Shown here: positions 13,861 through 19,895 of the stretch, piece by piece
Layout: the number at the start of each line of letters is the position of its first letter
Position numbering within the stretch: position 1 is the first letter of the stretch
Source: an uncultured Polyangiaceae bacterium
Lineage (GTDB): Bacteria; Myxococcota_A; Polyangia; Polyangiales; Polyangiaceae
DNA: 20,687 nucleotides
Direction: 5' to 3'
Assembly: GCA_964396175.1 (NCBI GenBank)
Contig: CAYNEK010000026.1
Span: 37,361-58,047, forward strand
Notes under the pieces: model-generated
The model's input: the letters and a program-made list of their open reading frames with translations, nothing else
The model's database searches: none
Told to the model about the DNA's origin: nothing
Program-made: the position numbers and the translations under genes

Positions 13861-15978
13861 CTACGGTGTCTGCGCCGTCACGTCCGCCGTCACCACCCCC
13901 TCCGGTCGTGGCGTCGCCTCACCCTCCTCACACGCCGGCAACACCACGCGGAAGCTCGAGCCGCGATCGAGCTGGGTCGTCACCTCGATCGCCCCCCCAG
14001 CCGCCTCCACGATCCGCTGCGAGATCGCGAGACCGAGCCCCGTGCCGCGGGGCTTCGTCGTGAAAAAGGGCATAAAGAGGCTCTTCTCGACGGACGGCGC
14101 CATCCCGGGCCCCTCGTCCGTCACCGCGATCTCGACCGACGCCCGTCCCGCCTGCTCCCCGAAGGCGCGCGACAGGACCCGCCCGCGCGACGAGATGGTC
14201 ACCATCCCGCGACCTCCCATCGCCTGCTGCGCGTTCTGCACGAGGTTCAAGATCACCTGGCGGAGCTTCTCGGGATCGATGCGCACCATGGGCAAGTCAT
14301 CGGCAAGATCGGCCGTGACCTCGATGCCCGCGAGGTCGGGCGTGAGGATCTGCAGCGTGCGACGAAGGACGCCGTTCGCGTCGATGGGTGGGGACGGGCC
14401 GGCGGGCGGACGCGCGTAGTCGAGGACGTTCGTGACGACGGTGTTCAGCCGATCGACCTCTTCGAGGATGACGCCGAGCAGATCCTTCGTCCCGAGGTCG
14501 AGGGGCTTGCCCTCCTCGGGATCGGCGAGCAGCTCCGCCGCGCCCTTGATCGCGCCGAGCGGGTTCTTGATCTCGTGCGCGAGGCCCGCGGAGAGCTGCC
14601 CGAGCGCCGCCAGACGATCCTTGATCTTGAGGCGGACGAACGCGCGCGAGTTTTCGAGCGCCACCGTGAGCTGCGCGGCGAGCGCGTCGAGCAAGCCGAC
14701 GTCCTCCGGCGAGAACGCGTCGCGGACGCGCACGTCGGCGATGACCCACAGCCCGACCGGCTCGCGCGGATCTCCGAGCGTGAAGATCACGCCCTCGGCG
14801 AGCGGTCCGAGCGTGCCGGCCGCCGCGAGGATCCCTGCGACCGCCGCCTCCCCACGCTCGTCACGCTCGCGCAGCACCTCGTCGAGGACGACGGGCCCTC
14901 GAGCCCGCGCCCGCTCGAACAGCGGCGCGAGGGCCGCGATCTCGACGAGCCGGGGCGGCTCGCACCCCGCCGCGAGGCTGAGATCGAAGGTGACGCCGTC
15001 GGGCGCGCGGAGGTAGAGCGCGGCCCCGGTGATCCGCCGCGACGCGGTGAGGCCCACCGTGACGATCGTCGCGATCTGGTCCACCTCGACCGCGCGCGCG
15101 AGCCGCCCGCGCACGTCGTGGGCCGTCTGCTCGAGATCGAAGCGCTCGCGGAAGAAGGTCCGATGGATCTGCTCCTCGACCCTCTGCCGCATCGGCTCGA
15201 AGAGGACGAGCACGACGACCGCCGCGAGGATGGCGTTCAGGTACATCGTCGAGAAGCGCCCGATGACCGTGACGCAGAGGTAGAAGATCCCCGCGAGCAA
15301 GAAGGCGAGCAGCGTCGCGACGACGATGCGCCCGAAGAGCTCGTAGAGGCCGAGGAGCCGCTCCTCGATGAGCGCCTGCGCGATCGCGAACAGGAAGATC
15401 ACCGACAGGGCCGATCCCACCGGCGGCAGCTCCGCGCCGATGAACCACAAGAACTCGGCGAGGCTCGTCCCGAGCGCGAGCGCGCCCGTCGTCACCAGGT
15501 ACTGGACGCGGCGCTTGATGGCCCGCGACGTCGAGCGCTGCCCTCGACGTGCAAGCGCGTAGAGCCCCGCCGCGAAGAACCCGCCGACATACGCGTACAC
15601 GATCCCACGCGCCCAGCCCTGCCCGTGCCAGTCCGAGAGCACGAGCAGCGTGACCGGGATCGCGATGAACATCGCCGCACGTCGCAGCCGGGGTGGCACG
15701 CTGCGGGGCGTCGGGAGGATCGCCTCGAAGAGCTCGAGCGACAGGATCGGCAAGAAGACCGACAGGATCGCCGTGAAGCGCGCCCAGATGCTCGCCTGGA
15801 AGAAGCCATAGAGCGCCTGCGCCGAGTACCAGAGCGCGAGATCTGCAGCGAAGAGCGAGAAGACGACGTGCGACCGGCGCGACCGCGCACGGAGCAGCAC
15901 CGCCCCCGCGATGGCGAGCGCGAGCGCGGCGCAGAGGACGAGGGTTCTCTTGCGGACGTCGGAGCCGAAGTCGACCAC
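13861..15978 (-). CDS. Sensor histidine kinase, 705 aa: N-terminal polytopic membrane domain (about 8 TM), GAF-like domain, HisKA dimerisation/phosphoacceptor domain, and HATPase_c. The start is probably GTG at 15978.
   Basis: H-box LAHEIKNPLGAIKGAAELL; N-box LNLVQNAQQA; G1 DEGPGM; G2 GTGLGLAIS. Hydrophobic N-terminus (LVLCAALALAIAGAVLL, FIAIPVTLLVL, IVVATLLAFLLAGIFYL etc.). Confidence 0.88.
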   Translation of the reverse strand: MVDFGSDVRKRTLVLCAALALAIAGAVLLRARSRRSHVVFSLFAADLALWYSAQALYGFFQASIWARFTAILSVFLPILSLELFEAILPTPRSVPPRLRRAAMFIAIPVTLLVLSDWHGQGWARGIVYAYVGGFFAAGLYALARRGQRSTSRAIKRRVQYLVTTGALALGTSLAEFLWFIGAELPPVGSALSVIFLFAIAQALIEERLLGLYELFGRIVVATLLAFLLAGIFYLCVTVIGRFSTMYLNAILAAVVVLVLFEPMRQRVEEQIHRTFFRERFDLEQTAHDVRGRLARAVEVDQIATIVTVGLTASRRITGAALYLRAPDGVTFDLSLAAGCEPPRLVEIAALAPLFERARARGPVVLDEVLRERDERGEAAVAGILAAAGTLGPLAEGVIFTLGDPREPVGLWVIADVRVRDAFSPEDVGLLDALAAQLTVALENSRAFVRLKIKDRLAALGQLSAGLAHEIKNPLGAIKGAAELLADPEEGKPLDLGTKDLLGVILEEVDRLNTVVTNVLDYARPPAGPSPPIDANGVLRRTLQILTPDLAGIEVTADLADDLPMVRIDPEKLRQVILNLVQNAQQAMGGRGMVTISSRGRVLSRAFGEQAGRASVEIAVTDEGPGMAPSVEKSLFMPFFTTKPRGTGLGLAISQRIVEAAGGAIEVTTQLDRGSSFRVVLPACEEGEATPRPEGVVTADVTAQTP

Positions 15979-15996
15979 GCGCCGCCGCTCGACCGG

Positions 15997-19300: not shown

Positions 19301-19895
19301 GCTCGCCGGCGCGGGGCGACGCAGGATCGATGAGCACCCACACGCCCCGGGTCGGCAGCTCGAGGAGCGCTCGCGCGACCTCGCGGTCCCACGCGAGCCC
19401 GCCGACGTCGACCACGGGCAGGGCCCCGACGGCCTGGGCGAGGGCGACGAGGATCTCTGCGGCCGAGCGCGGATCGCCCGGGAGCGCCTCGGCCCCGAGC
19501 CGGACCGACACCTCGCGGAACCGGCTCCCCCGGCCACGTCCGACCGCCAGCGAGATCCACCCACGCGCCCGTGCGCGCCGCGCCACATGCCTCGCGAGAT
19601 CGTCGAAGTCGAGCCCCTTCACCGCACGGACGCCCGAGCCCTCGACGAGGTGCGCGTCGAAGGCGACGAACGGAGACCGCACCGCCGCCTCCGGAGCGGG
19701 GGGCGAGGCCAGGACCTCTGGCGACGACAGACGACGAGCGGTCACCACGACCTGACGAGCGTACGCCCAATCTCTTCGGCTCGCAATCTGGGCGATCACG
19801 CCCACCGAACCTCGGCCGATCGGTCCCTCGGCGCGAGCGCCCGTGCCAGGGCCCGACGCCGTCGGGATCCCGTCACTCCGCGAAGGCTCGGCCAC
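16359..19895 (-). CDS. Sigma-54-dependent transcriptional activator (bacterial enhancer-binding protein, EBP), 1178 aa. It has a roughly 300-aa N-terminal domain of unknown type (no P-loop, no receiver), a roughly 450-aa TPR-like helical repeat region, a sigma-54 interaction AAA+ domain, and a C-terminal Fis-type HTH. The track start GTG at 19895 overlaps the glgA 3' end by 23 nt; the true start may be further downstream.
   Basis: Walker A GESGTGKE; GAFTGA motif (EKGAFTGA); Walker [11 protein letters not shown]; [10 protein letters not shown]...; [26 protein letters not shown]. Multiple A-x-x-A/L-rich paired-helix repeats (e.g. [25 protein letters not shown]). Confidence 0.88.

Follow-up and report, generated by a model that had tools for sequence, protein, structure and literature searches.

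Activators of sigma-54-dependent transcription (bacterial enhancer-binding proteins, EBPs) are normally switched by a receiver (REC), GAF, PAS, or similar small-molecule domain. The subject of this report is an EBP without a receiver that is encoded, together with a small lipoprotein and a membrane-embedded histidine kinase, in a 20,687-nucleotide (nt) stretch of DNA from an uncultured Polyangiaceae bacterium (contig CAYNEK010000026.1, positions 37,361 to 58,047; this whole stretch is referred to below as the window). The gene triad is well defined, widespread within one class, Polyangia, and uncharacterized; literature searches found no paper on this family, and the module is described neither by a curated family model nor by a paper in the library searched.

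A similar gene content is found in the QseE-QseG-QseF (GlrK-YfhG-GlrR) system of Enterobacteriaceae, where the genes for a sigma-54 activator and a small lipoprotein share an operon with that for a membrane histidine kinase. In the periplasm, the lipoprotein QseG binds to the kinase, and phosphorylation of the activator depends on it (PMC6075780). The likeness is in gene content alone, and the gene order is different. QseF has a REC domain that is phosphorylated by QseE, whereas the Polyangia EBP has none; the periplasmic loop of QseE binds QseG, whereas the nine helices of the Polyangia kinase are joined by minimal loops. No homology is detected between QseG and the Polyangia lipoprotein, which has no match among Pfam or NCBIfam families.

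PrsK-PrsR-PrsT, of the PEP-CTERM/exosortase systems, also combines a multi-pass GAF histidine kinase with a sigma-54 activator and a lipoprotein/tetratricopeptide repeat (TPR) component. In contrast to the Polyangia EBP, PrsR has a REC domain, and PrsT unites in one exported protein the TPRs and the lipoprotein that are separate proteins in the Polyangia triad. The kinase scores 126 against the PrsK model TIGR02916 (cut-off, 300) and the EBP scores 324 against the PrsR model TIGR02915 (cut-off, 503), partial matches that both fall far short of the cut-offs; no exosortase gene is seen in the window or in two loci that were annotated gene by gene.

NifL-NifA is the established precedent for control of a REC-less EBP through contact with a histidine kinase-like protein, and there, too, the two genes lie side by side. 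However, NifA has an N-terminal GAF domain where the Polyangia EBP has a predicted STAND (signal transduction ATPases with numerous domains)/TPR region, NifL is soluble and its phosphotransfer dispensable, whereas the Polyangia kinase is membrane embedded with all catalytic boxes invariant, and NifL-NifA includes no lipoprotein. The sensor layout of the EBP resembles that of MalT. From the STAND/TPR regulators (MalT, PH0952, and the LAL family) it differs by the absence of Walker A and B motifs, and therefore of a nucleotide switch, and by its output, a sigma-54 AAA+ motor with a Fis-type helix-turn-helix (HTH) instead of a LuxR HTH; outside the TPRs, sequence similarity to these regulators is undetectable.

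We propose, with trust and doubt about evenly balanced, that the three Polyangia genes form one self-contained signalling operon that is kept as a unit in this class and works in the way outlined below. A class-wide EBP family with a degenerate STAND/TPR module would add a new input logic to sigma-54 activators, and its pairing with an exported lipoprotein and a polytopic kinase makes for a concrete, testable pathway from the envelope to transcription. Polyangia (Sorangium, Chondromyces, Polyangium) are natural-product organisms whose regulation is poorly known.

The window has a G+C content of about 72%, and its real genes were told apart by G+C at third codon positions (GC3). The minus strand carries four of them, coding for a GlgA-like glycosyltransferase, the EBP, the lipoprotein, and the histidine kinase. 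The features of the module, in 1-based window positions, are as follows; ORF stands for open reading frame.

16359..19682 (longest ORF to 19895, 1178 codons), minus strand: EBP gene, 1107 amino acids (aa) from GTG 19682, assigned from Pfam and NCBIfam matches, GC3, and the deposited protein P0001
19688..19692, minus strand: GGAGG Shine-Dalgarno sequence, 5 nt before GTG 19682, read in the sequence
18861..19658, minus strand: EBP N-domain, with an alpha/beta core that resembles P-loop NTPases but lacks Walker A and B, an insert that is disordered, and a winged helix (probably a degenerate STAND-type nucleotide-binding oligomerization domain)
17496..18860, minus strand: TPR/MalT-like helical repeat sensor region, a highly conserved core (about aa 346 to 800, longest-ORF numbering)
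16647..17384, minus strand: sigma-54 AAA+ module and lid, with Walker A GESGTGKE, GAFTGA loop, and Walker B LFLDEIGD, motifs invariant in 19 orthologues
16410..16511, minus strand: Fis-type HTH (HTH_8, Pfam), nearly invariant across the EBP family
16357..16361, minus strand: TGATG overlap of EBP stop and lipoprotein start (translational coupling), with GGAGG within the final EBP codons
15997..16359, minus strand: lipoprotein gene, 120 aa, with signal peptide, lipobox Cys18, and an acidic, Pro-rich, probably disordered mature part
16189..16209, minus strand: first KPEPDPW (PxPxPW) motif of the lipoprotein, read in the sequence
16039..16059, minus strand: second KPEPDPW (PxPxPW) motif of the lipoprotein, read in the sequence
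13861..15978, minus strand: sensor histidine kinase gene, 705 aa, product identical to P0053
15193..15978, minus strand: nine-helix membrane sensor domain of the kinase, N terminus out, C terminus in, with short aromatic outer loops
14644..15126, minus strand: GAF domain of the kinase, a weak GAF_3 match here, with GAF, GAF_2, or GAF_3 in most orthologues
13933..14604, minus strand: HisKA (DHp, His in AGLAHEIKNPLG) and HATPase_c core (Pfam)

The triad is conserved in Polyangia. Searches with the non-AAA part of the EBP retrieve 46 protein clusters, of about 1100 to 1300 aa save for a few fragments and one marginal match, and all their taxon-named members come from Polyangia. A scan of one genome per species finds a relative in 155 species. 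Retrieval yielded 80 loci, all from Polyangia (Polyangium, Chondromyces, Byssovorax, Sorangium, Minicystis, Labilithrix, and many metagenome-assembled genomes), and 69 reach far enough downstream to be evaluable. The EBP, lipoprotein, and kinase genes are contiguous in 62 of the 69, and in one more if a frameshifted EBP is allowed; in those 62, the match to the kinase orthologue covers the membrane domain, with 43 to 61% identity. The first-pass annotation, made from the sequence of the window, had treated the three genes as one coupled module, and this view is supported.

The kinase slot is less uniform. In three Byssovorax loci, an additional kinase gene separates the lipoprotein gene from that of the histidine kinase: in locus L007 (12673-14229) its product is a membrane Ser/Thr kinase (Pkinase and RDD domains in Pfam), and in L009 (about 12645-14141) and L022 (about 6061-6828) kinase matches, by tblastn or as an ORF only, occupy the same slot. 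Three loci, L015, L039, and L042, have no histidine kinase; in L015 a membrane Ser/Thr kinase, again Pkinase plus RDD (3132-4640), stands in its place, and L039 and L042 have none. The replacement or sharing of the slot by a Ser/Thr kinase points to the lipoprotein and the membrane kinase as a sensing pair.

The EBP most likely starts at GTG 19682 and not at 19895, where the first-pass annotation had placed it. The GTG is preceded by the Shine-Dalgarno sequence, a start there reproduces the deposited 1107-aa protein, GC3 is low further upstream, and the alignment of orthologues begins only near aa 85 of the longest ORF. Otherwise the earlier layout holds in its gene order, TGATG overlap, kinase coordinates, and EBP ORF; the spacer from the lipoprotein stop to the kinase start is 18 nt long. 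In Pfam, the EBP matches Sigma54_activat (aa 838 to 1003; E = 1.6e-67), AAA_lid_14, and HTH_8 (aa 1129 to 1162); it thus has both the AAA+ motor with GAFTGA and the C-terminal Fis-type HTH of a bacterial enhancer-binding protein. As both Walker motifs, the GAFTGA loop, and the HTH are invariant among orthologues, it should be a working sigma-54 activator. PADLOC offers only generic RtcR/PspF-type models, matching the AAA+/HTH region, and the protein has no membrane segment or signal peptide. Its final codons (Ser-Ser-Glu-Glu-Ala-Ser; 16362-16376, minus strand) contain the GGAGG that is the ribosome-binding site of the lipoprotein gene. A Ser-x-Glu C terminus recurs in EBP orthologues, and the ribosome-binding site may be the constraint behind it.

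No REC domain is found in the window, either with Pfam on every real gene or with a hidden Markov model built from CheY, Spo0F, NtrC, and PhoB and run on all six frames. The same profile detects REC domains in a few other loci with E values of 1e-14 to 1e-29, and therefore works. Response_reg is not matched in the EBP or in 40 representatives of its family, and the predicted fold of the N-domain matches AAA+/STAND proteins, with no CheY-like structure in either list of fold matches. The EBP thus has no CheY-like REC with a phospho-accepting Asp and is not a response regulator; its lack of a receiver, noted already in the first-pass annotation, is secure. Its input must therefore enter through the N-domain/TPR part. 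Within about 10 kb, the profile finds a REC domain in just 4 of 83 loci.

Two of the REC genes belong to the loci most closely related to the module of the window, L003 and L004, in which they adjoin the EBP gene divergently. The gene in L003 (6344-7081, minus strand) lies 125 nt from the EBP start and codes for a 245-aa protein that consists of a REC domain and a Lys/Ala/Pro-rich, histone H1-like tail; the one in L004 is at about 8122-8475. For that clade, the divergent REC gene is a candidate for encoding the kinase partner. The equivalent position in the window holds glgA.

The sensor part of the EBP comprises the N-domain and the TPRs, in line with the first-pass view of TPR repeats and an unknown N-terminal domain in place of REC. 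The TPR matches in the window EBP (aa 383 to 593) are below the Pfam threshold, but a sequence search of the PDB matches this region to consensus TPR proteins with an E value of 2e-14, and 10 of the 40 family representatives match TPR_MalT (best E value, 2.8e-13). The N-domain (approximately the first 260 residues) has no Pfam match. An AlphaFold model with 25 orthologues as input (pLDDT, 81.5) has an alpha/beta core of four strands, together with a disordered insert and a winged helix, and Foldseek independently ranks plant NLR NB-ARC domains at the top, with E values of 0.014 or weaker. Neither Walker A (GxxxxGK[ST]) nor Walker B is found in the alignment of the 25 N-domain sequences, so the EBP does not have the P loop of a true STAND NTPase. 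The conserved residues are one His, two Arg, and Trp residues, with the His and Arg nearly invariant. An N-domain profile retrieves 178 representative clusters from 1.84 billion proteins; apart from two weak ones, the matches are N-terminal in proteins of about 1100 to 1350 aa or in fragments. Across the 40 diverse family representatives, the only Pfam families found are Sigma54_activat, the AAA lid, HTH_8, and TPR families. The model suggests that the sensor is a degenerate, nucleotide-free STAND module fused to a sigma-54 motor, a fold assignment that we regard as moderately secure.

The lipoprotein gene, predicted identically by independent gene callers, starts within the EBP stop codon, with the A of its ATG (16359-16357) shared with the TGA (16361-16359). 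Cys18 lies in a lipobox, LLVGGC, that follows a basic n-region and a hydrophobic core, and the product thus has the predicted signal peptide and lipobox Cys of a bacterial lipoprotein. Every locus inspected has a positional orthologue of 93 to 141 codons between the EBP gene and the next gene. An automatic filter for signal peptide and lipobox Cys passes 64 of 74 loci, and the remainder were recognized by eye; the overlap of stop and start is 4 nt long (ATGA) in 32 loci and a single nucleotide in 9. The mature protein is acidic and proline rich and cannot be aligned over its whole length among orthologues. As the sequence is of low complexity, tblastn searches with it give no matches, and the orthologues were identified by position and motif.

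The motif, PxPxPW, is the conserved element of the mature lipoprotein. Each of the 64 detected lipoproteins has it, 28 of them once, 35 twice, and that of the window three times in the form PxPW, two of which are full KPEPDPW copies. In the 101 motif instances P-x-P-W is true by search definition, but the extra Pro two residues upstream, which makes PxPW into PxPxPW, is present in 99. A six-frame search of the 1.45 Mb of loci finds PxPxPW 148 times, 117 of them inside the lipoprotein slot, and the remaining occurrences are mostly out-of-frame translations rich in Arg and Pro. Among the retrieved loci, the motif is almost exclusive to the lipoprotein gene. From the signals in every detected orthologue, the protein is predicted to be exported.

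The kinase combines the nine-helix membrane domain with the GAF, HisKA (aa 459 to 526), and HATPase_c (aa 568 to 682) domains. The H, N, G1, F, and G2 boxes of a HisKA sensor kinase are all present and are invariant in 54 orthologues, which argues that the protein is under selection as a phosphotransfer enzyme and is probably catalytically competent. The GAF domain named in the first-pass annotation is a weak match in the window copy (GAF_3; E = 0.006), but most orthologues match GAF models in Pfam. The nine membrane helices are seen both in the hydropathy profile and in an AlphaFold model (pLDDT, 76), with basic inner loops, and the modelled bundle is like that of seven-transmembrane (7TM) receptors. 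Homology searches with the membrane domain alone return just six fragments. The nearest curated families of the whole kinase are AtoS, ZraS, and PrsK, all matched below the cut-off. AtoS and ZraS serve REC-containing sigma-54 activators, and so does PrsK, according to the NCBIfam pairing.

Sigma-54-type promoters are not apparent in the window. Sites resembling TGGCAC-N5-TTGCW with at most two mismatches number 2, against 2.7 expected, and a weighted scan was also run; no site beyond chance occurs anywhere in the window, upstream of 4903 included, as the first-pass annotation had stated for that position. One of the two matches falls in the lipoprotein signal-peptide codons and the other in the kinase gene. 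The former, TGGCTGGTCCCTTGCT at 16352-16337 (minus strand), is the best -24/-12 match of the window; it was rejected because it covers codons 3 to 8 of the lipoprotein, its count is at chance level, and other loci have no counterpart there. Another rejected candidate, TGGCACGGGCGCTCGC at 19833-19848 (minus strand), sits after the glgA stop and before the probable EBP start; its -24 half is perfect (TGGCAC, 19848-19843), but the spacing to the GC is one base longer than canonical (GG-N11-GC).

Across the loci, sigma-54-type sites are enriched in two places, upstream of the EBP gene and inside it. In a Labilithrix-like clade, the conserved upstream TTGGCAC was rejected as a -24 box because it consists of a TTG start codon and an Ala codon, and much of the upstream enrichment is therefore discounted; several other upstream sites are identical among close relatives. 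The TTGGCAC of this clade comes 8 to 10 nt after an AT-richer, sigma-70-like element:

L043:8590-8660 (also in L011, L014, L018, L019, L041, L046, L047, L054, L062, L063, L065, L072, and L076): TTGAAC-N16-TAGGTT element

The arrangement resembles a sigma-70-type promoter that would give the EBP a very short leader and translation from TTG. The second enrichment, which is the more convincing, is due to TGGCAC-N5-yTGCW in 15 loci from Sorangium, Byssovorax, Minicystis, and other lineages, at 279 to 336 nt (444 nt in one case) before the EBP stop:

L077:11950-11965, L082:11941-11956, L007:11962-11977, L015:2368-2383, L020:11980-11995, L042:11980-11995, and nine more loci: internal sigma-54-type site

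All 15 of these sites are in the same codon phase and in the variable linker between lid and HTH, about 300 nt upstream of the lipoprotein start. They place T at two third codon positions (background T3, 5.6%) and use GCT/GCA Ala codons (background, 7%), although the sites were picked by a matrix that rewards those bases, the enrichment windows were set after inspection of the data, and the loci are phylogenetically related. Because of this mode of selection, the internal site is only suggestive of a sigma-54 promoter that, in some members of the family, might drive expression of the lipoprotein and the kinase. Neither the window nor its closest relatives have it.

In the operon that we propose, the TPR/STAND part would keep the AAA+ domain switched off as long as no cytoplasmic protein partner is bound, a gating logic like that of MalT-type STAND regulators minus the nucleotide exchange. 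The lipoprotein, outside the cytoplasm, would act as a co-sensor of the membrane kinase, presenting its PxPxPW peptides much as QseG acts on QseE. The kinase would autophosphorylate and pass the phosphate to a REC protein encoded elsewhere. The docking partner of the EBP sensor may be this REC protein or, with lower likelihood, the kinase. Feedback of the EBP on the operon, through the putative sigma-54 promoter in the 3' part of the EBP gene, is probable in many relatives. Several points weigh against this proposal. The REC partner of the kinase is hypothetical. The outer loops of the kinase are very short, so that a contact site for the lipoprotein is not evident, and the lipoprotein motif is kept in the three loci that have no histidine kinase. 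The promoter enrichment suffers from the post hoc windows and the relatedness of the loci, and the window itself has no canonical -24/-12 site. A more specific version, in which a lipid-anchored, probably disordered protein is the tethered PxPxPW ligand of a 7TM-receptor-like kinase that signals to a receiver-less EBP, with ring assembly gated by a nucleotide-free pseudo-STAND/TPR module and with the kinase or a REC protein in trans as the partner of the gate, is speculative and seems to us distinctly improbable as a whole.

Other arrangements of the same parts have to be weighed against this operon. The kinase might control the EBP directly, without any REC protein, by binding its STAND/TPR or AAA+ part in the manner of NifL and NifA or by phosphorylating a non-REC residue. 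The two genes are adjacent in 62 of the 69 evaluable loci with no linked REC, but co-regulation accounts for this equally well. Ser/Thr kinases do not phosphorylate the Asp of REC domains, so a shared target other than REC would be in keeping with their occurrence in the kinase slot, alone or beside the histidine kinase, and the N-domain offers a nearly invariant His and Arg; NifL-NifA shows that such contact control exists. However, the invariance of the phosphotransfer boxes in 54 orthologues is what is expected of a kinase that serves a REC domain and would be unneeded in a NifL-type binder, and myxobacteria commonly have orphan kinases whose partners are encoded elsewhere. Direct control is the main alternative, although on balance unlikely. 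A second alternative, about as likely as the first, is that the lipoprotein and the kinase are outputs of the EBP, which would sense an unrelated cytoplasmic cue through its TPRs, the pair forming a separate two-component pathway with a distant response regulator. The sigma-54-type site about 300 nt before the lipoprotein gene in 15 loci speaks for such an arrangement, and the divergent REC gene beside the EBP in L003 and L004 could code for the kinase partner there. Still, the window and its closest relatives lack the internal promoter, the stop/start overlap implies that the EBP transcript, too, yields lipoprotein, and feedback from the kinase to the EBP would remain compatible with this arrangement.

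Two suggestions of the first-pass annotation fare much worse. It had the EBP receive its input by protein-protein contact through the TPRs, with the lipoprotein as one possible ligand; the entry of the signal through the N-domain/TPR part and the absence of a REC partner in the cluster hold, but the proposed contact does not. Although the genes are translationally coupled, all detected lipoproteins have the signal peptide and lipobox Cys of exported proteins, and the EBP, lacking any membrane segment or signal peptide, keeps its TPRs in the cytoplasm. A lipoprotein outside the cytoplasm cannot be their ligand, which makes this binding topologically implausible and, in our estimate, extremely unlikely. 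The annotation had also raised the question whether the module regulates the convergent gene cluster next to it, which it called a flotillin cluster. Only physical proximity in the window, where the kinase gene lies tail-to-tail with a giant ATPase gene as that annotation had noted, across a gap of 273 nt, favours this idea. Relatives of the ATPase (a DUF3686 protein), of the two genes before it, and of glgA are found in 0 of the 80 loci, where nadD and a DUF2520 gene usually lie upstream and a formate-tetrahydrofolate ligase gene (fhs), in convergent orientation, downstream; -24/-12 matches in the window are at chance level. The convergence is therefore a local accident, and the adjacency, judged from these gene neighbourhoods, is incidental. 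Regulation of the cluster by the module is thus highly improbable, which removes a tempting but unsupported inference.

The cluster itself (4903-13587, plus strand) shows no Band_7/flotillin signature in Pfam, NCBIfam, PADLOC, or PDB sequence searches, and the flotillin label has no support from them. Its gene at 4903-5364 codes for an Ion_trans_2 channel-like protein, those at 5367-6152 and 6200-8194 have no family match, and the last, which ends at 13587, codes for the 1798-aa ATPase with DUF3686, DUF7902, and AAA domains. On the other side of the module, the GlgA-like glycosyltransferase gene lies upstream of the EBP gene on the same strand, stops at 19873, and extends beyond the window. 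Rfam has no match in the window.

Two more genes of the window are unlinked to the module in other genomes. One (2534-4696, plus strand) codes for a 720-aa Ser/Thr protein kinase whose C-terminal half has no assignment, and the other (276-2546, minus strand), divergent from it, codes for a CCG/4Fe-4S protein. In two related genomes, the kinase gene of the module is followed by a gene for a protein with FHA and PatA_N (DUF4388) domains (L001:16373-17374 and L002:16365-17297), which hints at Ser/Thr-phosphorylation signalling nearby.

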